49,798 nt of DNA. Origin: a virus (taxonomy: Duplodnaviria > Heunggongvirae > Uroviricota > Caudoviricetes). The position numbers and the translations under genes are program-made. Below are positions 1 through 15,084 of this stretch, piece after piece (position 1 is the stretch's first letter; each line of letters begins with the position of its first letter). The stretch is from IMG/VR virus record IMGVR_UViG_2568526473_000003; one strand, 5' to 3'. Below the pieces are notes generated by a model. That model was not told the DNA's origin. It made no database searches and saw only the letters and a program-made list of their open reading frames with translations.

Positions 1-1284
1 TTACTTCTTCGCCTCTGCAACCACTTTGCTACCCACGCCGCGGTTATTGTATTCCCACATGCGGTTGTAGTTAGTGTCATTCAGATTGCGCTGTATTTCG
101 TCGCTATCGTCAACGCTGCCGGTGTTACCCGCAAACGGACGATTAGAGATCACCGCATCGCCCCACGGTTTAGCCGTGTTAAAACCTTCGTTGATGGCGC
201 TATCACGGATCACCACCTGACCGTTGGTATTGGCATCAACATCCAGCGAGCGGCCCAGTTGTGCCACGCCATCACCGGAAGCATTGAAACGGCTGTTTAC
301 GGCGAGGAAACCGTAGTAAATGTTGGACAGCGTAGCCGGTGCAAACACATACGCTTCTTGCTGAGTACGTGAGTTCACCACGCGGAATTCGGTGTTATCG
401 AACACCACTGCGCCGCGACCAGAAACGATATCCACATCCCCTTCAATGTAGCTGTTGGTCACCAGCGTACGCGGCTGACGATTCGTTTCCAGACGGTTCT
501 GCACACCGCTGTTGGTGACAAAGAAGGTGTTCTGACGACCGAGAATGTTAACGTTGTTAATCTGTACCTGGTCACCGTCAGTACGCAGTGCCACCGCCGG
601 ATGGTTACCCGCATCTACGCTATCACCCAGCGTGTTTTCGATGGTCAGGTTTTGCAGTTGCAGGCCATTGTTTTGTGACCAGAAGACCGCAGAACACAGA
701 ACACCGATACTGTCGCTGCGTTTGCTCTGGCAGCTATCGTACATATACCACGCTGGTTTACCTGGCATATATTTGCCGCGCGGGTTGACGTCGTGACGCC
801 AGTCGGCAGGACTCATGCCCCCATCAAGGGAAAGCCCAATCTTCACATCAATCGGTTTTTCACCTGTACCGTACAGAGTAATTCCACCTGGAGCAGCAGG
901 GACATACACCGTTCCCTGATACTCACCAGGCATCACGGCAATATACTGGCGCTTGTTGGTGCGCTTGATAATTGCCGCATCTACCGCCGCCTGAATCGTG
1001 GTATGCGTTACACCTTGAGTACCCGCCGGGCCGACAACAAAGTCAGGTTGCGCAGGCAGGGTTATCGGGGACGGATTCCACGCTGCAGCACCTGGTGTCA
1101 GGGATGCAAAATAGTGTTGAGCATCGAAATTCTGCGCTTCTTTTGCCGACAGAATCGGGCGAGAAGAGGTACCAGGCGCAGTTTGATCAGAAGGACGTTG
1201 ATCGGGTGGTGTTGAGCTACAGGCGGTCAGCGTCACGCCAAAAGCCAATGCCAGCGCCAGACGGGAAACTGAAAATGTGTTCAC
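1..1284 (-). CDS. ybhC: Host outer-membrane lipoprotein YbhC (pectinesterase-like), complete 427 aa
   Basis: 427-aa ORF with lipoprotein signal (LTACSS) matching recalled E. coli YbhC, the gene flanking attB-lambda. Confidence 0.8.
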   Translation of the reverse strand: MNTFSVSRLALALAFGVTLTACSSTPPDQRPSDQTAPGTSSRPILSAKEAQNFDAQHYFASLTPGAAAWNPSPITLPAQPDFVVGPAGTQGVTHTTIQAAVDAAIIKRTNKRQYIAVMPGEYQGTVYVPAAPGGITLYGTGEKPIDVKIGLSLDGGMSPADWRHDVNPRGKYMPGKPAWYMYDSCQSKRSDSIGVLCSAVFWSQNNGLQLQNLTIENTLGDSVDAGNHPAVALRTDGDQVQINNVNILGRQNTFFVTNSGVQNRLETNRQPRTLVTNSYIEGDVDIVSGRGAVVFDNTEFRVVNSRTQQEAYVFAPATLSNIYYGFLAVNSRFNASGDGVAQLGRSLDVDANTNGQVVIRDSAINEGFNTAKPWGDAVISNRPFAGNTGSVDDSDEIQRNLNDTNYNRMWEYNNRGVGSKVVAEAKK

Positions 1285-2685: not shown

Positions 2686-3134
2686 CGCAAAGTCTCCGCA
2701 ATTACACGCAAGAAAAAGCCGCCATCAGGCGGCTTGGTGTTCTTTCAGTTCTTCAATTCGAATATTGGTTATGTCTGCATGTGCTATCTGCGCCCATATC
2801 ATCCAGTGGTCATAGCAGTCATTGATGTTCTCTGCTTCGATAACTCTGTTGAATGGTTCTCCATTCCATTCACCTGTGACTCGGAAGTGCATTTATCATC
2901 TCCATAAAACAAAACCCGCCGTAGCGAGTTCAGATAAAAGAAATCCTCGTCAGTGCGAGGATGCTGTTCATTGCTGCTATACACTTTTTTGCTCTCAACG
3001 TAAGCGGTAGCTCATTCTGTTGGGTTGGTGCAGTTGCTTTTAGGAAATGCTATTTACCCCTTAAACGTCGGCTGAAAGAGCTAAAATCCATGCAAAAAAT
3101 TTACGCAATTTTGTGTATTATTGTGCAGTAAGTA

Positions 3135-3737
3135 ATGAGCTATTTTCTGCGCAAAAAATGGATGGTAAATTTGTCCGGGGCAGGAAAAATTTTATGGGCG
3201 CTAAACATGAAAAAAGATTCGTATCCTTATTTGATTTGCATGACAGTTTCAGGCCTGATCTTTATTTTCCTTTTCTTCTGGTGGCGGGCAGATATTTACA
3301 GGGTCACGTTTCTTAATCAGAGTATATCCCACTATTACATTCTGTTTAGCATGGGAATAGCTTTTCTGTTATCTCTGTTTTGGGTTAAGAAGGGGATAGT
3401 AAAACAAAGCGGCTGGAAGAGTCTGTCAGCATACCTTAAGGTTTATGCAGGGATGTGCATATTTGCTGGATTTTTTCTGATTATACCCCTTACAACACTA
3501 ACTTATTTTTTGCCTGGAGAGACATCGTCTTATGTTGCACCGTATCGGTATACTTCCGGTAGTTCAAAAAGTTGTTCTGGAGCTGAGGTGGATGACCCCG
3601 ATCTACATGAGAATATTCGCATTTGCTATCCGTATGGCAATTATGAGTACGATAATATTATCTATGTTGAAAAGAAAATTAATACATTAGGTGCGGTAGT
3701 AACATATGCACAGACCGCGCGTGATGATACTGAATGA
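3135..3737 (+). CDS. Hypothetical membrane protein (about 3 TM helices plus Cys-containing C-terminal domain); AT-rich moron antisense to the pL operon; start uncertain (3135, 3162 or 3204)
   Basis: 200-aa ORF with hydrophobic segments (LICMTVSGLIFIFLFFWW, YYILFSMGIAFLLSLFWV, VYAGMCIFAGFFLIIPLTTL); low GC; occupies the slot of lambda ea8.5/ea22 but on the opposite strand. Confidence 0.5.
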   Translation: MSYFLRKKWMVNLSGAGKILWALNMKKDSYPYLICMTVSGLIFIFLFFWWRADIYRVTFLNQSISHYYILFSMGIAFLLSLFWVKKGIVKQSGWKSLSAYLKVYAGMCIFAGFFLIIPLTTLTYFLPGETSSYVAPYRYTSGSSKSCSGAEVDDPDLHENIRICYPYGNYEYDNIIYVEKKINTLGAVVTYAQTARDDTE

Positions 3738-3772
3738 GATAGTATATAGCGGGCAAGTTTTAGTTAATTTAT

Positions 3773-3794
3773 CGAGGTAATATAATTTACCTCG
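3773..3794 (+). terminator. Perfect hairpin (cgaggtaa-tataat-ttacctcg) downstream of the plus-strand membrane-protein gene
   Basis: 8-bp perfect inverted repeat with 6-nt loop 36 nt after the stop at 3737, followed by a T-rich run. Confidence 0.4.
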
Positions 3795-3947
3795 ACTCGT
3801 TTATTCTGGTATTAATATTTCGCTTTACGATCGATTTTTATCTGATGATATCATTCGGTTTTCATATACTGACTTACTGTCTTTTCTCCGTTAGCGATTT
3901 TCTCCTGCTCAGCGATGATTTTATCTTTGGCTTCTAGTTAATTTCGC

Positions 3948-4169
3948 TCACTTCGAACCTCTCTGTTTACTGATAAGTTCCAGATCCTCCTGGCAACTTG
4001 CACAAGTCCGACAACCCTGAACGGCCAGGCGTCTTCGCTCATCTATGGGATCGCCACACTCACAACAATGAGTGGCAGATATAGCCTGGTGGTTCAGGCG
4101 GCGCATTTTTATTGCTGTGTTGCGCTGTAATTCTTCAATTTCTGATGCTGAATCAATGATGTCTGCCAT
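3948..4169 (-). CDS. TraR/DksA-family C4 zinc-finger protein, 73 aa
   Basis: Paired CxxC motifs (CCEC ... CRTCASC) in a small acidic protein; typical phage TraR-like fold. Confidence 0.65.
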   Translation of the reverse strand: MADIIDSASEIEELQRNTAIKMRRLNHQAISATHCCECGDPIDERRRLAVQGCRTCASCQEDLELISKQRGSK

Positions 4170-4267
4170 CTTCCATTAATCCCTGAATTGTTGGTTAATA
4201 CGCTTGAGGGTGAATGCGAACAATAAAAAAGGAGCCTGTAGCTCCCTGATGATTTTGCTTTTCATGC

Positions 4268-4549
4268 TCACCGTTCCTTAAAGACGCCGTTTAACATGCC
4301 GATCGCCAGGCTTAAATGAGTCGGTGTGAATCCCATCAGCGTTACCGTTTCGCGGTGCTTCTTCAGTACGCTACGGCAAATGTCATCGACGTTTTTATCC
4401 GGAAACTGCTGTCTGGCTTTTTTGATTTCAGAATTAGCCTGACGGGCAATACTGCGAAGGGCGTTTTCTTGCTGAGGTGTCATTGAACAAGTCCCATGTC
4501 GGCAAGCATAAGCACACAGAATATGAAGCCCGCTGCCAGAAAAATGCAT
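4268..4549 (-). CDS. Hypothetical early-left protein, 93 aa (non-lambda)
   Basis: ORF starts 11 nt after the orf63 stop (translational coupling geometry) and is co-oriented with the pL operon; no recognised homolog. Confidence 0.5.
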   Translation of the reverse strand: MHFSGSGLHILCAYACRHGTCSMTPQQENALRSIARQANSEIKKARQQFPDKNVDDICRSVLKKHRETVTLMGFTPTHLSLAIGMLNGVFKER

Positions 4550-4559
4550 TCAGTGGTTG

Positions 4560-4751
4560 TCATACCAGGTCTCTCTCATCTGCTTCTGCTTTCGCCACCA
4601 TCATTTCCAGCTTTTGCGAAAGGGATGTGGCTAACGTATGAAATTCTTCGTCTGTTTCTACTGGTATTGGCACAAACCTGACTCCAATTTGAGCAAGGCT
4701 ATGTGCCATCTCAATACTCGTTCTTAACTCAACAGGAGATGCTTTGTGCAT
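4560..4751 (-). CDS. Lambda orf63-like early protein, 63 aa
   Basis: 192-nt ORF with the same length and 28-nt overlap with the next gene as recalled for lambda orf63; assignment by synteny and size. Confidence 0.55.
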   Translation of the reverse strand: MHKASPVELRTSIEMAHSLAQIGVRFVPIPVETDEEFHTLATSLSQKLEMMVAKAEADERDLV

Positions 4752-4906
4752 ATCGCCTCCCGTTTATTATTTATCTCCTCAGCCAGCCGCTGGGCTTTCA
4801 GTGGATTTTGGATAACAGAAAGGCCGGGAAATACCCAGCCTCGCTTTGTAACGGAGTAGACGAAAGTGATCGCACCTACCCGGATATTATCGTGAGGATG
4901 CGTCAT
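4724..4906 (-). CDS. Lambda orf60a-like early protein, 60 aa
   Basis: 183-nt ORF with 4-nt ATGA overlap with the exo stop, as in lambda; assignment by synteny and size. Confidence 0.5.
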
Positions 4907-5583
4907 CGCCATTGCTCCCCAAATACAAAACCAATTTCAGCCAGTGCCTCGTCCATTTTTTCGATGAACTCCGGCACCATCTCGTCAAAACTCGCCATGT
5001 AATTTTCATCCCGCTCAACCACGACATAATGCAGGCCTTCACGCTTCATTCGTGGGTCATAGTTGGCAAAGTACCAGGCATCTTTTCGCGTCACCCATAT
5101 GCTGTACTGCACCTGGGCCATGTAAGCCGACTTTATGGCCTCGAAACCACCGAGCCGGAATTTCATGAAATCCCGGGAGGTAAACGGGCATTTCAGTTCA
5201 AGGCCGTTGCCGTCACTGCATAAACCATCGGGAGAGCAGGCGGTGCGCATACTTTCGTCGCGATAGATGATCGGGGATTCAGTAACATTCACGCCGGAAG
5301 TGAATTCAAACAGGGTTCTGGCGTCGTTCTCGTACTGTTTTCCCCAGGCCAGCGCCTTAGCATTAACTTCCGGAGCCACACCGGTGCAAACCTCAGCCAG
5401 CAGGGTGTGGAAGTAGGACATTTTCATGTCAGGCCACTTCTTTCCTGAGCGGAGCTTTGCTATCACGTTGTGAACTTCTGAAGCGGTGATGACGCCGAGC
5501 CGTAATTTGTGCCATGCATCATCCCCCTGTTCGACAGCTCTCACGTCGATCCCGGTACGCTGCAGGATAATGTCCGGTGTCAT
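4903..5583 (-). CDS. exo: Lambda exonuclease (Red-alpha), 226 aa
   Basis: Translation [43 protein letters not shown]... matches lambda Exo. Confidence 0.97.
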
Positions 5584-6365
5584 GCTGCCACCTTCTGCTC
5601 AGTGGCTTTCTGTTTCAGGAATCCAAGAGCTTTCACTGCTTCGGCCTGTGTCAGTTCTGACGATGCGCGAATGTCGCGGCGAAATATCTGGGAACAGAGC
5701 GGCAATAAGTCGTCATCCCATGTTTTATCCAGGGCGATTAGCAGAGTGTTAATCTCCTGCATGGTTTCATCGTTAACCGGAGTGATGTCGCGTTCCGGCT
5801 GGCGTTCTGCAGTGTATGCAGTATTTTCGACAATGCGCTCGGCTTCATCCTTGTCATAGATACCAGCAAATCCGAAGGCCAGACGGGCACACTGAATCAT
5901 AGCTTTATGCCGTAACATCCGTTTGGGATGCGACTGCCACGGCCCCGTGATTTCTCTGCCTTCGCGGGTTTTGAATGGTTCGCGGCGGCATTCATCCATC
6001 CATTCGGTAACGCAGATCGGATGATTACGGTCCTTGCGGTAAATCCGGCATGTACAGGATTCATTGTCCTGCTCAAAGTCCATGCCATCAAACTGCTGGT
6101 TTTCATTGATGATGCGGGACCAGCCATCAACGCCCACCACCGGAACGATGCCGTTCTGCTTATCAGGGAAGGCGTAAATTTCTTTCGTCCACGGATTAAG
6201 GCCGTACTGGTTGGCGACGATCAACAATGCGATGAACTGCGCATCGCTGGCATCGCCTTTAAATGCCGTCTGGCGAAGAGTGGTGATCAGTTCCTGTGGG
6301 TCGACAGAATCCATGCCGACACGTTCAGCCAGCTTCCCTGCCAGCGTTGCGAGTGCTGTACTCAT
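5580..6365 (-). CDS. bet: Recombination protein Bet (Red-beta), 261 aa
   Basis: Translation [59 protein letters not shown]... matches lambda Beta. Confidence 0.97.
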
Positions 6366-6370
6366 CCGTT

Positions 6371-6667
6371 TTATACCTCTGAATCAATATCAACCTGATG
6401 GTGAGCAATGGTTTCAACCATGTACCGGATGTGTTCTGCCATGCGCTCCTGAAACTCAACATCGTCATCAAACGCACGGGTAATGGCTTTTTTGCTGGCC
6501 CCGTGGCGTTGCAAATGACCGATGCATAGCGATTCAAACAGGTGCTGGGGCAGGCCTTTTTCCATGTCGTCTGCCAGTTCTGCCTCTTTCTCTTCACGGG
6601 CAATCTGCTGGTAGTGACGCGCCCAGCTCTGAGCCTCAAGACGATCCTGAATGTAATAAGCGTTCAT
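6371..6667 (-). CDS. gam: Gam, RecBCD inhibitor (98-aa GamS form; the upstream ATG at 6788 is out of frame)
   Basis: Translation [48 protein letters not shown]... matches lambda GamS; the [13 protein letters not shown] start is present but in a different frame. Confidence 0.9.
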
Positions 6668-6742
6668 GGCTGAACTCCTGAAAATGGCTGTGAAAATATC
6701 GCCCGCGAAATGCCGGGCTGATTAGGAAAACAGGGAAGGGGG

Positions 6743-6886
6743 TTAGTGAATGCTTTTGCTTGATCTCAGTTTCAGTATTAATATCCATTTTTTATAAGCG
6801 TCGACGGCCTCACGAAACATCTTTTCATCGCCAATAAAAGTGGCGATAGTGAATTTAGTCTGGATAGCCATAAGTGTTTGATCCAT
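6743..6886 (-). CDS. kil: Kil (FtsZ inhibitor), 47 aa
   Basis: Translation [47 protein letters not shown] matches lambda Kil. Confidence 0.9.
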
Positions 6887-7019
6887 TTTTTGGGACTCCT
6901 GGCTGATTAAGTATGTCGATAAGGCGTTTCCATCCGTCACGTAATTTACGGGTGATTCGTTCAAGTAAAGATTCGGAAGGGCAGCCAGCAACAGGCCACC
7001 CTGCAATGGCATATTGCAT
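6855..7019 (-). CDS. cIII: CIII (FtsH/HflB inhibitor), 54 aa
   Basis: Manual translation of the minus strand gives [54 protein letters not shown]; overlaps kil by 32 nt as in lambda. Confidence 0.9.
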   Translation of the reverse strand: MQYAIAGWPVAGCPSESLLERITRKLRDGWKRLIDILNQPGVPKNGSNTYGYPD

Positions 7020-7091
7020 GGTGTGCTCCTTATTTATACATAACGAAAAACGCCTCGAGTGAAGCGTTATTGGTATGCGGTAACGCAGCGC

Positions 7092-7460
7092 TCAGGCGGC
7101 TTTGATAGTCATATCATCTGAATCAAATATTCCTGATGTATCGATATCGGTAATTCTTATTCCTTCGCTACCATCCATTGGAGGCCATCCTTCCTGACCA
7201 TTTCCATCATTCCAGTCGAACTCACACACAACACCATATGCATTTAAGTCGCTTGAAATTGCTATAAGCAGAGCATGTTGCGCCAGCATGATTAATACAG
7301 CATTTAATACAGAGCCGTGTTTATTGAGTCGGTATTCAGAGTCTGACCAGAAATTATTAATCTGGTGAAGTTTTTCCTCTGTCATTACGTCATGGTCGAT
7401 TTCAATTTCTATTGATGCTTTCCAGTCGTAATCAATGATGTATTTTTTGATGTTTGACAT
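7092..7460 (-). CDS. ea10: Ea10 (lambda early protein), 122 aa
   Basis: Translation MSNIKKYIIDYDWKASIEIEIDHDVMTEEKLHQINNFWSDSEYRL... matches lambda Ea10 in sequence and position. Confidence 0.85.
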   Translation of the reverse strand: MSNIKKYIIDYDWKASIEIEIDHDVMTEEKLHQINNFWSDSEYRLNKHGSVLNAVLIMLAQHALLIAISSDLNAYGVVCEFDWNDGNGQEGWPPMDGSEGIRITDIDTSGIFDSDDMTIKAA

Positions 7461-7610
7461 CTATTCATATCCTCATAGATAAAAAATCGCCCTCACATTA
7501 GAGGGCAAAGAAGATTTCCAATAATCAGAACAAGTCGGCTCCTGTTTAGTTACGAGCGACATTGCTCCGTGTATTCACCCGTTGGAATGAATACACAGTG
7601 CTTATTCGTA

Positions 7611-8081
7611 CTAATAAAACACCCAATTTTCTGTTTCTTGGTTGTGTCCAAAGTTATATTCAATATCTGGTATTGATGTATCAATATTCTTCATCCCATC
7701 AACAAGAGTTGATACAACAGCCAAATCTTGTTTGATTCTCATTAAATGGTACTTCTTCCGGCGCAATAAACTTTCAATGGCAAGTTTCTTCGTCGGGAAT
7801 GCAAAAGATCTTTCGGCATTTTTTGCTACTTTCTTAATTGCATATCTATTTCTCCTTTGTTTCCATTCCTGTAACCACTGATTTGGTGCTGGTTTAAAAT
7901 TAACAATCCAATGCGCAGGAACCAACCATGCATAATGATCTGTCTGATGAAAAGCTATATATTGAAGTGCGAATATTTTGATTCCATCTTCTTCAACTGT
8001 CGCTTGGAATCTCCAGAAAACAGGCATTCCATCATGTTCAGTTTCTGATTCAGGAAAAGGTACGCTCCATGATTTTGTCAT
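7611..8081 (-). CDS. Hypothetical 156-aa protein inserted between ral and ea10 (pL-operon moron, AT-rich)
   Basis: Intact ORF co-oriented with the pL operon; no lambda counterpart at this position as I recall it; AT-rich relative to flanking lambda genes. Confidence 0.6.
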   Translation of the reverse strand: MTKSWSVPFPESETEHDGMPVFWRFQATVEEDGIKIFALQYIAFHQTDHYAWLVPAHWIVNFKPAPNQWLQEWKQRRNRYAIKKVAKNAERSFAFPTKKLAIESLLRRKKYHLMRIKQDLAVVSTLVDGMKNIDTSIPDIEYNFGHNQETENWVFY

Positions 8082-8146
8082 ATCTCACCTCAAATAATTC
8101 AGTGCTGTGTTTATTCTGTTGTTTATGCCAAAAATAAAGGCCACCG

Positions 8147-8347
8147 TCAGGCAGCCTTGTTATTCTGTTTACCAAGTTCTCTGGCAATCATTTCCGTCGT
8201 TCGAATTGCCCATTTATCGACATATTTCCCATCTTCCATCACAGGAAACATTTCTTCAGGCTTAACCATGCATTCCGATTGCAGCTTGCATCCATTGCAT
8301 CGTTTGAATTGTCCACACCATTGATTTTTATCAATAGTCGTAGTCAT
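8147..8347 (-). CDS. ral: Ral (restriction alleviation), 66 aa
   Basis: Translation MTTTIDKNQWCGQFKRCNGCKLQSECMVKPEEMFPVMEDGKYVDKWAIRTTEMIARELGKQNNKAA matches lambda Ral. Confidence 0.9.
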   Translation of the reverse strand: MTTTIDKNQWCGQFKRCNGCKLQSECMVKPEEMFPVMEDGKYVDKWAIRTTEMIARELGKQNNKAA

Positions 8348-8425
8348 ACGGATAGTCCTGGTATTGTTCCATCACATCCTGCGGATGCTCTTCGAACTCT
8401 TCAAATTCTTCTTCCATATCTCACC

Positions 8426-8752
8426 TCAAATAAGTGGTTTGCTGCCTAATTTCATTTTCTGTCGACCAACACAAGTCACACCCATTTCACTGCGTGGCTT
8501 GCTGTACCATGTGCGCTGATTCTTGCGCTCAATACGCTGCAGGTTGCTTTCAATCTGTTCGTGGTATTCAGCCAGCACCGTAAGGTCTATCGGATTCAGT
8601 GCGCTTTCTACTCGTGATTTCGGTTTGCGATTCAGCGAGAGAATAGGGCGGTTAACTGGCTTTGCGCTTACCCCAACCAACAGGGGATTTGCTGCTTTCC
8701 ATTGAGCCTGTTTCTCTGCGCGACGTTCGCGGCGGCGTGTTTGTGCATCCAT
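8426..8752 (-). CDS. N: Antiterminator N, 108 aa from the MDAQTRRRERR start
   Basis: Translation MDAQTRRRERRAEKQAQWKAANPLLVGVSAKPVNRPILSLNRKPKSRVESALNPIDLTVLAEYHEQIESNLQRIERKNQRTWYSKP... matches lambda N (divergent extreme C-terminus). Confidence 0.9.
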   Translation of the reverse strand: MDAQTRRRERRAEKQAQWKAANPLLVGVSAKPVNRPILSLNRKPKSRVESALNPIDLTVLAEYHEQIESNLQRIERKNQRTWYSKPRSEMGVTCVGRQKMKLGSKPLI

Positions 8753-8910
8753 CTGGATTCTCCTGTCAGTTAGCTTTGGTTGTGTGTGGGAGTCGTAGTC
8801 CTGAACGAAAACACCCCCGCAATGGCACATTGGCAGCTAATCCGGATTCGCACTTCCGGCCAATGCTTCGTTTCGTATCACACACACCAAAGCTTTCTGC
8901 TTTGAATGCT

Positions 8911-8941
8911 GCCCTTCTTCAGGGCTTAATTTTTAAGAGCA
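8911..8941 (-). promoter_or_regulatory. nutL: nutL (boxB GCCCTGAAGAAGGGC at 8911-8925; boxA-like TGCTCTTAAAAA at 8930-8941)
   Basis: Minus-strand reading reproduces the lambda nutL boxB hairpin exactly; boxA first base is T where lambda has C, by recollection. Confidence 0.8.
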
Positions 8942-8980
8942 TCACCTTCATGGTGGTCAGTGCGTCCTGCTGATGTGCTT

Positions 8981-9043
8981 AGTATCACCGCCAGTGGTAT
9001 TTATGTCAACACCGCCAGAGATAATTTATCACCGCAGATGGTT
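8981..9043 (-). promoter_or_regulatory. pL promoter with operators OL1 (8983-8999), OL2 (9007-9023) and OL3 (9027-9043)
   Basis: Minus strand reads TTGACATAAATACCACTGGCGGTGATACT; the three 17-bp operators match lambda OL1-3. Confidence 0.9.
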
Positions 9044-9194: not shown

Positions 9195-9218
9195 AGAAAA
9201 CCCGGCGCAGATGCCGGG
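9195..9218 (-). terminator. Rho-independent terminator after the cI-orf301 transcription unit
   Basis: Hairpin cccggc-gcagat-gccggg followed on the minus strand by a T-run; same position as the terminator after rexB in lambda. Confidence 0.6.
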
Positions 9219-9230
9219 CTGTGGTGGAGA

Positions 9231-10136
9231 TCAATGCTTATTTGGGAGTGCTGGTTTTTTTATCGACTCTAATAGCTCGGAGGCGTTACTAATCTTTTTG
9301 TTCCCAAGGTAATTTGGCAGTTTTTCCATTGCGTAATTATCGTGTAGCCATTTTCTGAACACGCCAAGTGCCTCAATAGGATAAATCCAAGCTGTTATAT
9401 GCTTATTTGCAGCTGACTGCCTGTAATTTTCGGGGAATAGATGTGGGTACTGCACCCTTTCCCCGAATTTCTCAGATAGCCCATTAGCTGTCCAATACTT
9501 TCCCCAGTGAATTCCAACACTTCCATCCAAAGATGTGGTGTCATCCATTGGGAATCCTCCTCCGATCAGGTTCATGGCAATGTCAGCTATCTCTCTGAAT
9601 ACTGCAAAATGAGTTGTCGGTATCTGATCGTTTAGCTTAATCCTTGCTCTATAGTTCTCGAATGAGATATCTATTGAAGCATTTGGGTTGTAATTTGACT
9701 TTTCATAAATCATTCGCTTAAGCGTGTACTCAGCCAAGCGAACAAAATTACCTATTGCGACTGACCTATCAAAATTGGTGGCATCTAGAGCGTAGTAACG
9801 GAGGATAGCCATGCAAACATAGTCAGGATAAGCATGAGTTTCCACGTTTGAGCTATTTAAAACGCGAGTGTATAGCTTTTCGACGTTATGAAACCCTTTC
9901 TCAGCTAAATACGCAGCTACTTTTTGACCTCTGGGTTTGTTTTTCTCTGTGTTCCAGTTTGATGTGAACACCCTCAGTGGCGTGTCATCAATGCCGCATA
10001 ACTTTGCGAGACCGTAGAGAGTTAGGTAAGGAGTTCCATCATTGAGAACGCCCATAGGAATATCATCAGAAACAACCTCTACTACAGGGAAAAGCTGCAT
10101 TTGATGCAGGGATTCGCTATTGCTGTTAATCGACAT
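9231..10136 (-). CDS. Hypothetical 301-aa protein occupying the rexAB slot downstream of cI (candidate lysogen-expressed exclusion/abortive-infection protein)
   Basis: Intact ORF 86 nt downstream of the cI stop, co-oriented with cI; AT-rich; does not resemble RexA or RexB; no recognised domain. Confidence 0.6.
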   Translation of the reverse strand: MSINSNSESLHQMQLFPVVEVVSDDIPMGVLNDGTPYLTLYGLAKLCGIDDTPLRVFTSNWNTEKNKPRGQKVAAYLAEKGFHNVEKLYTRVLNSSNVETHAYPDYVCMAILRYYALDATNFDRSVAIGNFVRLAEYTLKRMIYEKSNYNPNASIDISFENYRARIKLNDQIPTTHFAVFREIADIAMNLIGGGFPMDDTTSLDGSVGIHWGKYWTANGLSEKFGERVQYPHLFPENYRQSAANKHITAWIYPIEALGVFRKWLHDNYAMEKLPNYLGNKKISNASELLESIKKPALPNKH

Positions 10137-10222
10137 ATCTTAATGATTTCCTTATTTTTATTGTAGGGATCTGCTTTTTTATTTCCTACATCTAGATGCG
10201 TATAAAGTCTCTTGCTGCGGAC

Positions 10223-10939
<717 letters not shown>

Positions 10940-10946
10940 TTAAATC

Positions 10947-11012
10947 TATCACCGCAAGGGATAAATATCTAACACCGTGCGTGTTGGCTATTTTACCTCT
11001 AGCGGTGATAAT
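10947..11012. promoter_or_regulatory. Right operator: OR3 (10947-10963), OR2 (10970-10986), OR1 (10994-11010) with pRM and pR (-35 TTGGCT 10984-10989, -10 GATAAT 11007-11012)
   Basis: Three 17-bp lambda operator sites between divergent cI and cro; OR1 reads TACCTCTAGCGGTGATA. Confidence 0.85.
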
Positions 11013-11027
11013 AGTTGCATGTACTAA

Positions 11028-11237
<210 letters not shown>

Positions 11238-11244
11238 ATAACCC

Positions 11245-11276
11245 CGCTCTTACACATCCCAGCCCTGAAAAAGGGC
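11245..11276 (+). promoter_or_regulatory. nutR: nutR (boxA CGCTCTTAC 11245-11253; boxB GCCCTGAAAAAGGGC 11262-11276)
   Basis: Exact lambda nutR boxA and boxB motifs between cro and cII. Confidence 0.85.
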
Positions 11277-11355
11277 ATCAAATTAAACCACACCTATGGT
11301 GTATGCATTTATTTGCATACATTCAATCAATTGTTATCTAAGGAAATACTTACAT

Positions 11356-11649
11356 ATGGTTCGTGCAAACAAACGCAACGAGGCTCTACGAATCGAGAGT
11401 GCGTTGCTTAACAAAATCGCAATGCTTGGAACTGAGAAGACAGCGGAAGCTGTGGGAGTTGATAAGTCGCAGATCAGCAGGTGGAAGAGGGACTGGATTC
11501 CAAAGTTCTCAATGCTGCTTGCTGTTCTTGAATGGGGCGTCGTTGACGACGACATGGCTCGATTGGCACGACAAGTTGCTTCGATTCTCACCAATAAAAA
11601 ACGCCCGGCGGCAACCGAGCGTTCTGAACAAATCCAGATGGAATTCTGA
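11356..11649 (+). CDS. cII: CII transcriptional activator, 97 aa
   Basis: Translation MVRANKRNEALRIESALLNKIAMLGTEKTAEAVGVDKSQISRWKRDWIPKFSMLLAVLEWGVVDDDMARLARQVASILTNKKRPAATERSEQIQMEF matches lambda CII. Confidence 0.95.
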   Translation: MVRANKRNEALRIESALLNKIAMLGTEKTAEAVGVDKSQISRWKRDWIPKFSMLLAVLEWGVVDDDMARLARQVASILTNKKRPAATERSEQIQMEF

Positions 11650-11681
11650 GGTAATTACTGGATCTATCAACAGGAGTCATT

Positions 11682-11828
11682 ATGACAAAACAACTCAGTC
11701 CTTACCAGGACAAAATTCACAAACACATACTACGTGATCGCTTCCTGTCCAGCTTCAAGCAGCCTGGTCGATTCCGGGCTGAGTTGGAAAAGGTGAAGCT
11801 GATGCAGAAGGAGAAAGGTCATGAGTAA
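11682..11828 (+). CDS. Small hypothetical protein (48 aa) between cII and the replication gene
   Basis: [51 protein letters not shown] preceded by a CAGGAG ribosome-binding site 6 nt upstream; not in the ORF track because under 60 aa. Confidence 0.4.
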
Positions 11829-12720
11829 CATATCTAATCTAGCCGAAGCCAGAGAGGCCAGAAGGCTACAACAACCGCATCAAAGCAGCGGTAAGGGGTA
11901 TGCCTTGCTGCACCGTAAAATTATGGATGTGCCGTTTTACAAGGACGCAGAAGCAGCACATCTGTGGGTTCACTTAATCCTCAAAGCAAAGCATACGCCT
12001 GAGTATGTAATGACTGACGCAGGAGAAATTCTGGTAGGCAGAGGTAAGCTACTTGGCGGTAGAAACTCTCTGGCGTTTGAAACAGGACTCAAACCAGATC
12101 GCGTTCAGTACCTGCTTAGAAAGTTCAAAAAACTCGGCATGATTGACTGGGTTTCACACGGTAAATTCTCAGTTTTCTCGGTAGAGAAATATGACGATTA
12201 TCAGTCAAATTTTGTACCAGCAGATTACCAGCAAATTACCACCTCAAAGCCAGCAATACCAATGCCTGTAAGCAATACTGTACCAGCAGATTACCAGCAA
12301 ATTACCACAGATAAAGAATATAATAATATTATCTCTAATACTGACGTATTAGAGAGTGCCACAGCAGACAAAAAGTCTGACAAGAAAAAACCTTCCGTTA
12401 GCTGTCAGGATGTTGTCGATGCTTACCACGAAATCCTTCCTGAAGCGCCAAGAATCCGCGCACTGAATGACAAGCGTAAAAACCAGATCCGAACGTTCTG
12501 GCGCAAAGCCGGAGTGATAACCCGCCAGCTTGACGGGCATGGGTTCTCGATGCAGGACTGGAGAAATTATTTGAGCTACGTAGGCGAAAATTGCCGATGG
12601 ATGTTCGAAGAACGCCCAAACCATCAACGCGGAACCGTCTGGCACAAAAAGGGATTTGATTTCCTGCTTAACGACAATACCTACCTGAAAGTTCGTGAGG
12701 GTGAACACGATGACCGATAA
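11821..12720 (+). CDS. Replication initiator (O-like, non-lambda allele) containing origin iterons, 299 aa
   Basis: Position after cII; internal direct DNA repeats encode duplicated [10 protein letters not shown] peptide segments, the hallmark of ori-within-O genes. Confidence 0.7.
12214..12308. repeat. Origin iterons: two 29-bp direct repeats (gtaccagcagattaccagcaaattaccac) at 12214-12242 and 12280-12308, each with ATTACC sub-repeats
   Basis: Exact 29-bp direct repeat read from the sequence, inside the initiator gene. Confidence 0.7.
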
Positions 12721-14146
12721 TTTTTATGCGCCGCCCCATAGCATCGAGGCAGAGCAGGCGGTGATTGGTGGATTGCTTCTGGATGATGACAGCAGTGAGC
12801 GCGTCCAGAAAGTTCTGGCGATGCTGAAGCCTGATTCATTTTACGGCCGACCACACAAAATCCTTTTCGAAGAAATAACCAGAATGCACCGGGAGCAAAA
12901 GCCAGTAGATGGCCTGACGCTTTTCGATGAACTGGAGCGTAAATCGTTAACGGCGTCTGTTGGCGGTTTTGCTTATATCGCTGAGATCGCAAAGAACACG
13001 CCAAGCGCAGCAAACATCGTTGCCTATGCAATGCAGGTTCGTGAAACCGCAATGGAACGCTACGCCATCAACCGCATGACTGAAGCGACGGAATTGCTCT
13101 ATTCCCGCAACGGAATGACTGCAACGCAGAAGTACGAAGCTATTCAGGCGATTTTCACGCAACTGACAGACCATGCAAAAACCGGATCGCGTCGCGGCCT
13201 TCGCTCATTTGGTGAGGTCATGGAAAACTGGGTTAGCGACCTTGAGAAGCGATTTGACCCGTCAGGAGAACAACGAGGAATGAGCACAGGGATCCCATCG
13301 CTGGACAGGATGCTGTCACCGAAAGGTCTGGTGAAAGGCTCTCTGTTTGTCATTGGCGCTCGCCCTAAGATGGGGAAAACGACGCTATACAGCCAGATGG
13401 CAATCAACTGCGCAGTTCATGAGAAAAAGCCTGCTCTGATGTTCAGCCTTGAAATGCCAGGTGACCAGATACTGGAAAAACTGGTGGGACAGAAGTCAGG
13501 TGTTAACCCGAATATTTTTTACCTTCCGGCGACAAATGACGCTGATGACGGCTATCAGGGTGATTACGATGGTGACTTCAACAGGGCGATCGAAACAGCT
13601 AATCGTTTGAGTGAAATCGACCTGCTTTACATCGACGACACGCCGGGATTATCTCTGGCTCAAATCGTCAGCGAAAGCCGTCGAATCAAGCGAGAAAAAG
13701 GATGCGTTGGCATGATTCTGGTCGATTACCTGACACTAATGACTGCTGAGAAGGCCGATCGCAACGACCTTGCTTACGGCATGATCACCAAAGGACTGAA
13801 GAACCTTGCCAAAGAGCTTGATTGCGTTGTTGTGCTTCTGACACAGCTTAACCGCGCATTGGAAAGCCGAACCAATAAACGCCCATTACCAAGTGACTCG
13901 CGAGATACAGGGCAGATTGAACAGGATTGCGATTATTGGGTCGGGATCCATCGTGAAGGCGCTTTTGATGACAGTGTTCCACCTGGTGAAACTGAACTAA
14001 TCCTTCGTCTCAATCGTCATGGCAATACCGGCACGGTGTATTGCATTCAGGCAAATGGCGCTATTTATGACACAGACCAACAGTCTGCTGAAATGCGCCG
14101 CCGTGAGCGCGAGGAACCGCAATCCAAGAAGAAAGGAGGATTCTGA
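12710..14146 (+). CDS. Replicative DNA helicase (DnaB family), about 478 aa
   Basis: N-terminal DnaB motifs (PPHSIEAEQAVIGGLLLDD) and Walker A (GARPKMGKTT); replaces lambda P. Confidence 0.85.
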   Translation: MTDNFYAPPHSIEAEQAVIGGLLLDDDSSERVQKVLAMLKPDSFYGRPHKILFEEITRMHREQKPVDGLTLFDELERKSLTASVGGFAYIAEIAKNTPSAANIVAYAMQVRETAMERYAINRMTEATELLYSRNGMTATQKYEAIQAIFTQLTDHAKTGSRRGLRSFGEVMENWVSDLEKRFDPSGEQRGMSTGIPSLDRMLSPKGLVKGSLFVIGARPKMGKTTLYSQMAINCAVHEKKPALMFSLEMPGDQILEKLVGQKSGVNPNIFYLPATNDADDGYQGDYDGDFNRAIETANRLSEIDLLYIDDTPGLSLAQIVSESRRIKREKGCVGMILVDYLTLMTAEKADRNDLAYGMITKGLKNLAKELDCVVVLLTQLNRALESRTNKRPLPSDSRDTGQIEQDCDYWVGIHREGAFDDSVPPGETELILRLNRHGNTGTVYCIQANGAIYDTDQQSAEMRRREREEPQSKKKGGF

Positions 14147-14219
14147 TGACCATCTACATCACTGAGCTTGTAACAGGTCTGCTGGTAATCGCAGGCCTTT
14201 TTATTTGGGGGAGAGGGAA

Positions 14220-14492
14220 ATGAACGATAGCTACCGACAATTCGAAGAGTGGTGGTCAAAATACAAAAGCCCGTTCACGGAAGACGACGGGTTAAAAGAG
14301 TTTGCCTGGGTGATATGGCAGGCATCAAGGGCAGCTATTGAACTGGATATCGACTGGCCCGAATCGAATGACAACTTTTGGAAAGGTGGCGAAGAAGGCG
14401 CTTATGCGATGGGGCATGAGGATGGGAAGGACAAAACGGTAATTGCAGTGATGAAAGCCATCATAGCCGCTGAAGTCAAAGTGAAGGAGTAA
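14220..14492 (+). CDS. Hypothetical nin-region protein, about 90 aa
   Basis: ORF with GAGGGAA ribosome-binding site before the ATG at 14220; acidic small protein; no recognised homolog. Confidence 0.45.
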   Translation: MNDSYRQFEEWWSKYKSPFTEDDGLKEFAWVIWQASRAAIELDIDWPESNDNFWKGGEEGAYAMGHEDGKDKTVIAVMKAIIAAEVKVKE

Positions 14493-14494
14493 CG

Positions 14495-14905
14495 ATGAAG
14501 CAAACAATCTTCCTCCGAACTAAGCAACAACAGCAAGCCGCAATCAACGCCATCCTCTCAGCTCCTCTCGATAAAGACAAGCCAGTCACCATCCGCATTA
14601 CTGACTACAAGCGCAACCTTGACCAGAACGCAAAATTTCACGCGATGCTGGCGGATATCGCACGTCAGGTTCAATGGTGCGATAAATGGTTAAAACCAGA
14701 ACAATGGAAGGTTTTGTTGATCAGCGGTCATGCAGTGGCAACAAAACAGGAAGCTGATGTTTTGCTAGGCCTTGAAGGAGAATACGTCAACATTCGCGAA
14801 AGTAGCGCACAGATGAGCGTGAAGCGCATGGCAAGCCTGATTGAGTACACGACAGCCTGGGCTATTGGTCAGGGTGTCAGATTTACCGACAGGAGGTACG
14901 AATGA
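14495..14905 (+). CDS. ninB: NinB (Orf) family recombination protein, 136 aa
   Basis: Position and conserved [17 protein letters not shown] / W-K motif pattern resembling lambda NinB. Confidence 0.7.
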
Positions 14906-15084
14906 GACGACAGCGACGAAGTATCACCGACATAATCTGCGAAAACTGCAAATACCTTCCAACGAAACGCTCCAGAAATAAATCCAAGCCAATCCCAAAA
15001 GAATCTGACGTAAAAACCTTCAACTACACGGCTCACCTGTGGGATATCCGGTGGCTTAGAGAACGTGCGAGGAAAACAAGGTGA
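14902..15084 (+). CDS. ninE: NinE, 60 aa
   Basis: Translation [60 protein letters not shown] matches lambda NinE. Confidence 0.85.

Follow-up and report, generated by a model that had tools for sequence, protein, structure and literature searches.

In phage lambda, the replication genes O and P follow cII and are expressed from pR, and the origin, ori-lambda, lies within the initiator gene, between the segments encoding its origin-binding N-domain and its partner-binding C-domain. Four 18-bp dyad-symmetric iterons are followed there by an AT-rich tract, and P acts as a loader that hijacks the DnaB of the host. The orf48-18-12 module of P22 also has its origin inside the initiator gene, followed by a gene for a DnaB-type helicase and then ninA/tR2. 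The N-domain of its initiator, gp18, belongs to the lambda O type (PF04492), and its iterons are dyad-like sequences of ~20 bp (GGTAAA...TTTACC). For the P22 helicase, gp12, 5'-3' hexameric helicase activity and an interaction with DnaG are known from Wickner 1984, as cited in PMC8022706. In the laboratory hybrid lambda hy106, imm-lambda is combined with P22 orf48-18-12; this phage is viable, and a dnaB-grpD55 host supports its growth (PMC3349717). The origins of Sf6, HK620, and phage L contain three plus three 11-bp repeats, and in a study of phage L the proposed origin is a set of six 11-bp repeats (PMC8022706). In the Bacillus phage SPP1, the replisome organiser gp38 binds direct repeats as well as an AT-rich DNA-unwinding element within gene 38 (oriL), and gp40 is a DnaB-family helicase (PMC6316719).

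We analyzed the replication region of an integrated prophage contained in a DNA stretch of 49,798 nucleotides, hereafter the window. The left end of the prophage, at 1331, is lambda att/int-like and is preceded by non-phage sequence (1-1330). We are highly confident that positions 11657-14223 constitute an HK022-type lambdoid replication cassette, composed of orf48, an initiator, a DnaB-type helicase, and ninA/tR2 (Table 1), within a prophage otherwise characterized by lambda immunity; this reading includes the mechanism and the route of acquisition proposed below. HK022 (whose genes 53/54/55 correspond to orf48, O, and P), HK630, VT2-Sakai, and Stx1-converting phages have the same gene order, iterons, and right boundary. 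HK022, HK620, and the Stx phages carry their own immunity regions, whereas the module in the window is flanked by a cI-cro-cII region that is 99% identical to that of lambda. The replacement of lambda O/P by an HK022-type cassette is already described and represents ordinary lambdoid module swapping. The HK022 O/P cassette is not exotic but common among lambdoid phages and prophages, and complete E. coli genomes that pair the same immunity with the same replication genes number at least 18.

Table 1 Features of the replication cassette and its edges (positions in the window; a dot marks features given without a strand).
Feature	Position	Strand	Evidence or remark
tO, lambda-type oop terminator	11625-11598	-	Terminator scan; zone of shared lambda/HK022 homology
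pO promoter-like site	11670-11643	-	Promoter scan; zone of shared lambda/HK022 homology
Conserved 33-bp lambdoid boundary sequence ACTGGATCTATCAACAGGAGTCATTATGACAAA	11657..11689	+	Alignment of window, lambda, HK022, P22, Sf6, 933W
orf48 (48 aa, DUF2740)	11682..11828	+	Pfam DUF2740 8.9e-29; 3' end overlaps initiator start
Replication initiator, 299 aa, HK022 gene O protein	11821..12720	+	99% protein identity
Iteron cluster 1, three tandem 11-bp units TACCAGCAGAT / TACCAGCAAAT / TACCACCTCAA	12214..12247	.	Repeat searches, TRF
Iteron cluster 2, TACCAGCAGAT / TACCAGCAAAT / TACCACAGATA	12280..12313	.	Begins exactly 66 bp after cluster 1
AT-rich stretch, candidate DNA-unwinding element	12309..12331	.	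23 bp, 9% GC
Inverted repeat TCTCTAATAC-tgac-GTATTAGAGA, 10-bp stem	12332..12355	.	Stem-loop in terminator scan; right of AT-rich stretch
DnaB-family replicative helicase, 478 aa, HK022 gene P protein	12710..14146	+	99% identity, Pfam, TIGR03600
ninA (25 aa), right boundary sequence	14146..14223	+	Alignment with HK022, P22, Sf6, HK630
tR2-like terminator within ninA	14175-14198 plus T run	+	Terminator scan

The edges of the cassette were examined by blastn against lambda. Homology over 10223-11689 (99.0% identity) ends abruptly 40 bp past the cII stop codon and returns at 14909; further breaks lie at ~2962/3936, 7601/8100, 8442/8496, and 9218/10223. This bears out the proposal of the earlier note that the lambda-type block ends after cII, with a junction within 11650-11820. 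A second junction, proposed near 4550, was absent in the comparison with lambda, as identity is uniform (96-100%) across 3936-7601. That segment, at 97.7% identity to lambda overall, holds the recombination genes that had been described as lambda-like, and the structural genes, described as diverged, are indeed 66-88% identical to those of lambda. The replication module itself had been delimited at 11821-14146: both replication ORFs stand, and the start does not, since orf48 puts the beginning of the swapped segment at 11682.

The left crossover falls in the conserved 33-bp boundary sequence, which is also quoted in PMC3349717, with lambda-type polymorphisms extending to ~11678 and HK022/P22-type sequence from 11690. 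The blastn segments for lambda and for HK022 share 11588-11689, a zone that contains oop/pO elements described previously (PMC3349717), and a search of 10000-15000 against Rfam (E<=0.1) returned no match at all, so that oop RNA is not detected there as a family. In lambda hy106, the junction between immunity and replication genes likewise lies in the pO region (PMC3349717). At the right edge, HK022, P22, Sf6, and HK630 agree with the window to ~14219, beyond which all diverge. Both module edges coincide with elements labeled in the Sf6 annotation, 'bsq5; boundary sequence' on the left and 'bsq6; boundary sequence' and 'tR2' on the right. Homologous recombination at the pair of short conserved boundary sequences flanking lambdoid replication modules most likely brought in the cassette, and the case illustrates how lambdoid phages exchange whole replication cassettes at such sites.

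Between these edges, the cassette is nearly identical to those of described phages. A single blastn segment (11588-14177) matches HK022 at 97.5% identity, HK630 matches at 98.4% over 11657-14215, and VT2-Sakai and Stx1 phages are 97.6% identical to the cassette at the DNA level. The initiator aligns with HK022 gpO over 299/299 aa with three amino-acid differences (99% identity), and the helicase with HK022 gpP over 478/478 aa (99% identity). Since the window is an integrated prophage and many E. coli prophages are defective, the module could in principle be an inactive remnant of a cryptic prophage. We consider this very unlikely: every ORF of the module is intact, with 99% identity to its counterpart in HK022, a viable phage, HK630 and VT2-Sakai have the very same iterons, and the helicase motifs are preserved (ARPKMGKT in the translation; MILVDY, TQLNR, and RDTGQIEQD by regular expression). 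These represent the ATPase and DNA-binding motifs conserved in the DnaB family (P-loop, Walker B, QLNR, and RDSGxIEQD).

We next consider the origin. The two 29-bp direct repeats reported previously proved to be exact copies of GTACCAGCAGATTACCAGCAAATTACCAC at 12214-12242 and 12280-12308, and at 94% identity the two copies can be followed over 35 nt. Across 11600-14300, exact direct repeats reach 30 nt at most, against a longest repeat in 200 shuffles that averaged 10.7 nt and never exceeded 17. Within these repeats, a 14-mer, ACCAGCARATTACC, occurs in four exact copies, all in 12216-12306 and none elsewhere in the window, and TRF reported a period of 11 with 2.5 and 3.0 copies. The region resolves into two clusters, each of about three tandem 11-bp iterons with the core TACCAGC. 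The 60-nt interval with the lowest GC content in the module (12290-12349, 25% GC) includes the adjacent AT-rich stretch. The inverted repeat that follows is also carried by Sf6, and the stretch common to Sf6 and the window starts there. In all, at least four direct repeats, exceeding chance expectation, adjoin an AT-rich element, as in iteron-type origins of the lambda, P22, and SPP1 oriL style. The iterons occupy nt 394-493 of the 900-nt initiator gene. Together with the AT-rich DNA (nt 12214-12355), they correspond to aa 132-179, which fall inside a linker predicted to be disordered: the AF2 model of the initiator places a disordered linker (aa 130-185) between two folded domains, aa 28-128 and aa 190-299. 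Both this anatomy and the comparison with relatives support the claim that the origin lies inside the initiator gene. In the literature searched, we found no experimental study of this particular origin.

Being in frame, the 66-bp unit translates into a recurring peptide, and its copy number differs between alleles, with initiators of 299, 321, and 343 aa containing 2, 3, and 4 copies of the 22-aa unit. Variation of this kind is seen in many protein linker repeats, and one could argue that the repeats are a mere duplication of a 22-aa linker peptide without origin function, the origin being located elsewhere. However, from one 11-mer to the next the codon phase shifts (1, 0, 2), so that an 11-bp repeat could not be maintained by selection on the protein, and these out-of-frame sub-repeats are features of the DNA. 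Relatives with other linker peptides retain the layout of three 11-bp units at 66-bp spacing, the 9%-GC tract and the inverted repeat directly adjoin the iterons, as in the lambda and P22 origins, and the iteron type changes along with the N-domain at the Sf6 breakpoint. Moreover, no second repeat cluster was found in the module. A linker duplication devoid of origin function is, in our view, highly improbable, and we retain the repeats as candidate origin iterons.

Comparison with relatives further supports an origin function. HK630 and VT2-Sakai have the identical pair of 29-mers, 66 bp apart, and in HK022 one 29-mer is exact and the other (cluster 2) has a 1-nt variant, suggesting that exact identity of the repeats is not strictly required. 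All four 14-mers are present in 76 of the 80 IMG/VR relatives. In Sf6 and two other relatives (L091 and L092), two clusters of about three 11-bp repeats lie at the same position in the gene with the same 66-bp spacing, but with different sequences: TGTCCAACGG in Sf6, TGCCAACAGAT in L091, and GTGCCAACAGA in L092, versus TACCAGCARAT in the window. The N-domains of these three initiators are ~45-58% identical to that of the window, and hence the repeat sequence covaries with the DNA-binding domain of the initiator while the layout is shared. In Sf6, the N-domain is divergent from residue 1 to ~165 of the alignment, and ~98% DNA identity to the window, covering the C-domain and the helicase, begins exactly after the iterons (~12311). 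The same C-domain and helicase, ~98% identical in DNA past the iterons, are shared by Sf6 (genes 43/44), HK620, and phage L (genes 18/12), whose repeats lead into the AT-rich and inverted-repeat segment also seen in the window. Judged from these alignments, the Sf6 breakpoint is a domain-plus-iteron swap at the origin, and the case points to initiator DNA-binding domains being exchanged along with their iterons. The Sf6-type phages also differ in the small upstream gene, which is a homolog of HK97 gp53, whereas the window has orf48.

We then asked how the two replication proteins relate to those of lambda and P22. BLASTP detected no similarity between the initiator and lambda O (E=4.8), and hhalign with a 61-sequence profile gave a probability of 0.2%. 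The lambda O-type domain PF04492 (Phage_rep_O) was absent at E<=1 from both the full initiator and aa 1-130, although it matched the controls, lambda O (5.7e-36) and P22 gp18 (6.9e-38). The N-domain (about aa 28-128) adopts a generic winged-helix fold in the model and belongs to a different family from that of P22 gp18. Its match to PF09681, the phage replisome organiser N-terminal domain, stays below threshold (E 0.097; 13.1 bits against a cutoff of 23.3), and 13 of 61 diverse relatives match this family (best E 7.4e-08). To P22 gp18, hhalign gave a faint hint at the level of the helix-turn-helix (E 0.017, probability 2.7%), and the C-domains of the two proteins show weak similarity (25% identity, E 1e-4). 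No PDB sequence matched the initiator at E<=1, and NCBIfam lacks a model for it. By sequence, then, the initiator is not a lambda O homolog. We set aside phrog_345 as proof of N-domain homology, as this is a mosaic family that mixes P22 gp18-type and HK022-type proteins.

The second gene clearly encodes a DnaB-family helicase, with matches to Pfam DnaB (PF00772, 1.2e-30, 106 bits against a cutoff of 23), DnaB_C (PF03796, 3e-60, 204 bits against 27), and NCBIfam TIGR03600 phage_DnaB (582.5 bits against 498.65). It is 31% identical to P22 gp12 (E 2e-58), and BLASTP against lambda P detected no similarity (E=1.3); PF06992, the lambda P domain, matches lambda P at 6.4e-62 and has no match in the helicase of the window. 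We placed its start at ATG 12710 (478 aa), used in the HK022, HK630, and Sf6 annotations; GTG 12695 would give 483 aa. This start overlaps the stop of the initiator gene, which suggests that the two genes are translationally coupled. These family matches, with the lack of similarity to lambda O and P, confirm that the module is of the initiator-plus-own-helicase type. The earlier note had named as its refutation an alignment showing both proteins to be divergent lambda O and P homologs, and the BLASTP, hhalign, and Pfam comparisons left its reading standing. The chance that the two genes are diverged lambda O and P, with no module replacement, is practically negligible: a lambda-like gene order (cII, an initiator with internal repeats, a second replication gene, the nin region), an initiator of the same length as lambda O (299 aa), the label 'replication initiation O-like' of phrog_345, which the N-terminal part of lambda O matches at 5.2e-17, and the faint hint to P22 gp18 are outweighed by the failed comparisons with O and P, the different fold and function of the second protein, and the abrupt loss of DNA homology to lambda over 11689-14909.

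The module shares with lambda its position after cII, pR-driven expression, and an AT-rich tract after iterons placed between the two initiator domains, but its proteins have no detectable sequence homology to lambda O and P, and it has six 11-bp direct repeats rather than dyad-symmetric iterons of the lambda (18-bp) or P22 (~20-bp) kind. By analogy with lambda O, P22 gp18/gp12, and SPP1 gp38/gp40, we infer the following course of origin firing. Transcription from pR would express orf48, the initiator, and the helicase. The N-terminal winged helix of the initiator would bind the six 11-bp iterons inside its own coding sequence, arranged as two clusters of three, one iteron per helical turn, with the clusters six turns apart. 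The resulting nucleoprotein complex could melt the adjacent 23-bp, 9%-GC stretch, and the C-terminal domain of the initiator would recruit the phage's own DnaB-type helicase, after which host primase and polymerase would act. With a phage-encoded helicase recruited in this way, the hijacking of host DnaB by a protein of the lambda P type would not be needed, making the prophage probably independent of host DnaB. We thus predict that the prophage replicates using its own helicase and, consequently, that host or plasmid functions directed against lambda O, lambda P, or ori-lambda would not affect it.

A bolder and rather doubtful extension is that the HK022-type origin represents a mechanistically distinct class, with six helically phased 11-bp repeats, a winged-helix reader unlike lambda O, and a ring helicase lacking a recognizable loader. 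The copy number of the 66-bp unit (2-4) could then tune firing or incompatibility, and the ever-present orf48 could be a cofactor. If true, this would constitute new biochemistry of a known module rather than a new element. For the cassette reading itself, the practical consequence is that the prophage annotation should gain a rep_origin at ~12214-12355; beyond annotation, the result matters little.

Unlike SPP1, which has a dedicated loader (gp39), the module contains no recognizable one: in the flanks searched, orf48 and the ORF at 14205-14492 had no informative matches. The small gene orf48 matches no NCBIfam model and accompanies modules of this type. Its position and its homologs, P22 orf48 (88% identical DNA) and HK022 gene 53, lead us to reject the PHROGs label 'tail protein' (phrog_1913) as a mis-annotation. 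The trio of DUF2740 protein, initiator, and DnaB is kept even in the distant relatives L092 and L093.

As the earlier note had proposed, a foreign initiator and DnaB-type helicase module lies beside lambda immunity genes; this observation was confirmed and its interpretation is supported. The initiator and helicase are 99% identical to the HK022 gene O and gene P proteins, respectively. We considered whether the pair might simply be lambda O and P homologues that have diverged. BLASTP detected no similarity between lambda O and the initiator (E 4.8), and PF04492 (Phage_rep_O), which lambda O and P22 gp18 match at 1e-36 to 1e-38, was not found in the initiator even at E≤1. An initiator profile built from 61 diverse relatives aligned to lambda O with an hhalign probability of 0.2%. 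P22 gp18 showed weak C-terminal similarity alone (25% identity, E 1e-4) and, against the profile, a faint helix-turn-helix-level hint (hhalign E 0.017). Lambda P, a PF06992 member, has no similarity to the helicase. Simple divergence from lambda O and P is therefore not borne out.

The helicase matches Pfam DnaB (1.2e-30) and DnaB_C (3e-60), scores 582.5 bits against NCBIfam TIGR03600, “phage replicative helicase, DnaB family” (cutoff 498.65), and retains intact P-loop, Walker B, QLNR, and RDTGQIEQD motifs. It shares 31% identity with P22 gp12 (E 2e-58). GAGGGTG precedes the ATG start, which is the one used in the HK022, HK630, and Sf6 records.

Features in and around the replication module (window coordinates)
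Feature	Position	Strand	Details
BstA gene	9231-10136	-	301 aa; PADLOC BstA, E 1.3e-105
Lambda-type cI	10223-10936	-	upstream of initiator
oop terminator	11625-11598	-	detected by scan
pO-like promoter	11670-11643	-	detected by scan
orf48	11682-11828		48 aa; DUF2740, 8.9e-29
Initiator gene	11821-12720	+	299 aa
AT-rich tract	12309-12331		23 bp, 9% GC; directly downstream of iterons
Inverted repeat	12332-12355		10-bp stem; after AT-rich tract
Helicase gene	12695/12710-14146	+	483 aa from GTG; 478 aa from ATG 12710

In a blastn segment map, lambda homology spans 10223-11689 (99.0%) and resumes at 14909, while HK022 homology covers 11588-14177 (97.5%) and HK630 homology 11657-14215 (98.4%). In the alignment, lambda-type polymorphisms continue through ...GGAGTCATTATGACAAA and then switch to HK022/P22-type ACAACTCAGTC, which locates the left crossover to ~10 bp spanning the start codon at 11682. 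Hayes et al. (PMC3349717) pointed out a conserved pO/oop sequence of 33 bp, annotated in Sf6 as boundary sequence bsq5, and the crossover lies within it. On the right, ninA and a tR2-like terminator are common to the window, P22, Sf6, and HK630 until ~14219, where all diverge, an edge corresponding to Sf6 bsq6. Together, these edges delimit a swapped unit of 11682-14223, comprising orf48, initiator, helicase, and ninA. Upstream of the initiator lie lambda-type cI, cro, and cII, followed by orf48, which accompanies the module in P22, HK022, and distant relatives. The “tail protein” label that PHROGs v4 gives orf48 (phrog_1913), copied in the HK630 RefSeq record, is almost certainly a propagated mis-annotation, given the conserved position of this gene ahead of the initiator in P22, HK022, and relatives.

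The two 29-bp direct repeats reported within the initiator gene are exact copies of GTACCAGCAGATTACCAGCAAATTACCAC at 12214-12242 and 12280-12308, the positions given in the earlier note; at 94% identity, the repeated stretch grows to 35 nt. Exact direct repeats within 11600-14300 reach a length of 30 nt, compared with a mean of 10.7 and a maximum of 17 in 200 shuffles. The 14-mer ACCAGCARATTACC has four mismatch-free copies, all in 12216-12306 and none elsewhere in the 49.8-kb window, and Tandem Repeats Finder called an 11-nt period (2.5 and 3.0 copies). Each of the two clusters, whose starts lie 66 bp apart, thus holds about three units of 11 bp (TACCAGCAGAT, TACCAGCAAAT, and last a degenerate TACCAC...).

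Several lines of evidence support these repeats as a candidate origin. Consecutive 11-mers lie in different codon phases (1, 0, and 2), and the 11-bp periodicity must therefore be a DNA-level feature, as it could not be maintained through the protein. Across relatives, the iteron layout is kept and the iteron sequence changes: Sf6 gene 43 carries 3+3 copies of TGTCCAACGG, and the relatives L091 and L092 (N-domains 58% and 47% identical) carry 2.6+3.0 copies of TGCCAACAGAT and 2.7+2.5 copies of GTGCCAACAGA, respectively, with clusters 66 bp apart in each case. Homology between Sf6 DNA and the window (98%) starts at ~12311, exactly at the end of the annotated Sf6 rep_origin, and Sf6 gp43 is nearly identical to the initiator from residue 171 on but diverged before it; the DNA-binding domain has thus been exchanged together with its iterons, the break falling at the origin. 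In nature the initiator occurs as alleles of 299, 321, and 343 aa, set apart solely by having 2, 3, or 4 copies of a 22-aa (66-bp) unit. This copy-number polymorphism of the iteron cluster (alleles P0002-P0027 with 321 aa and P0001 with 343 aa) occurs in otherwise near-identical genes from E. coli, E. albertii, and Salmonella. Finally, the order of iterons, AT-rich tract, and inverted repeat mirrors that of the lambda and P22 origins.

An AlphaFold2 model of the initiator (61-sequence alignment, mean pLDDT 81) contains two confident domains, at approximately aa 28-128 and 190-299 (pLDDT >90), joined by a disordered linker (~aa 130-185, pLDDT 42-54). From the first iteron through the AT-rich tract to the end of the inverted repeat (nt 12214-12355, aa 132-179), the DNA lies within the part of the gene that encodes this linker. 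The N-domain belongs to a large family, with 4,834 cluster representatives recovered at E≤1e-3; of 61 members sampled, 13 matched PF09681 (phage replisome-organiser N-terminal domain), for which the initiator itself is sub-threshold (E 0.097).

By analogy with lambda O/P, P22 gp18/gp12 (Wickner 1984), and SPP1 gp38/gp39/gp40 (PMC6316719), we infer that pR transcription would yield orf48, initiator, and helicase, the overlapping stop and start codons of the latter two suggesting coupled translation. Initiator N-domains would bind along the phased 11-bp sites, one at each helical turn, the two clusters being spaced by six turns, and the resulting complex would destabilise the adjoining 9%-GC tract. 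The C-domain, which stays linked to the helicase in Sf6, HK620, and phage L, would recruit the phage’s own DnaB-type helicase, which could then engage host primase and polymerase. Helicase loading is the least certain step, since no loader gene is recognisable in the module.

This lambdoid replication cassette has been described before and is widespread, and its mosaic position is a textbook case of modular exchange. At the DNA level, the module matches 424 phage records, including HK022, HK630, VT2-Sakai, Stx1-converting phages, and the PA series; 59 cover at least 80% of it. Initiator relatives are encoded on 379 IMG/VR stretches (tblastn E≤1e-3). Among the best 80, initiator identity is 97-100%, and the upstream immunity region is in most cases a different one. 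Exact or near-exact initiator protein clusters are found on hundreds of contigs. The combination of lambda cI-cro-cII and module (10200-14300) was found in 18 of 5,426 complete E. coli genomes (~97-98.6% identity, at least 80% coverage). A long-used laboratory analogue, lambda hy106, joins imm-lambda to P22 orf48-18-12; at low multiplicity it grows on a dnaB-grpD55 host that does not support lambda (PMC3349717).

The surrounding mosaic largely followed the earlier note. Lambda homology bears out the lambda-like int/xis (1331-2962), recombination (3936-7601, 97.7%), and immunity genes, and the structural genes are indeed diverged, with just 66-88% identity to lambda; they are closest to phage 21-type genomes (~91.6%). 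The junction suggested near 4550 was not seen: lambda identity is uniform (96-100%) across 3936-7601, and a small ORF simply ends at 4549/4550. The match to lambda starts at 1331 (lambda 27724, attP core region), followed by int; the window therefore begins in flanking non-phage DNA (1-1330), where an ORF (1..1284, minus strand) runs off the left end. The element is an integrated prophage, ordered int...cI...rep...lysis...cos (~21894)...head/tail.

Further patches were observed. A non-lambda insert (2962-3936) separates the xis-side genes from the ea22/exo-side block and carries a 200-aa ORF (3135-3737, plus strand) with no Pfam or PADLOC match. The segment 7075-8097, 98% identical to phage 933W (record 8000-9022; ssb/Ea10-like and a neighbouring gene), is another mosaic patch and breaks up the lambda-like early-left region. 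An abortive-infection defence protein, BstA (profile positions 4-281 of 292; no Pfam match), is encoded in the place of lambda rexA/rexB, between the N/pL side, where homology ends at 9218, and cI, where it resumes at 10223, suggesting a defence-gene exchange at the rex locus beside the repressor. Right of the module (14145-14504), the ORF at 14205/14220-14492 (phrog_343) shares 88.6% identity with the 933W segment that follows ren (ST933Wp31); the nin region starts with yet another donor.
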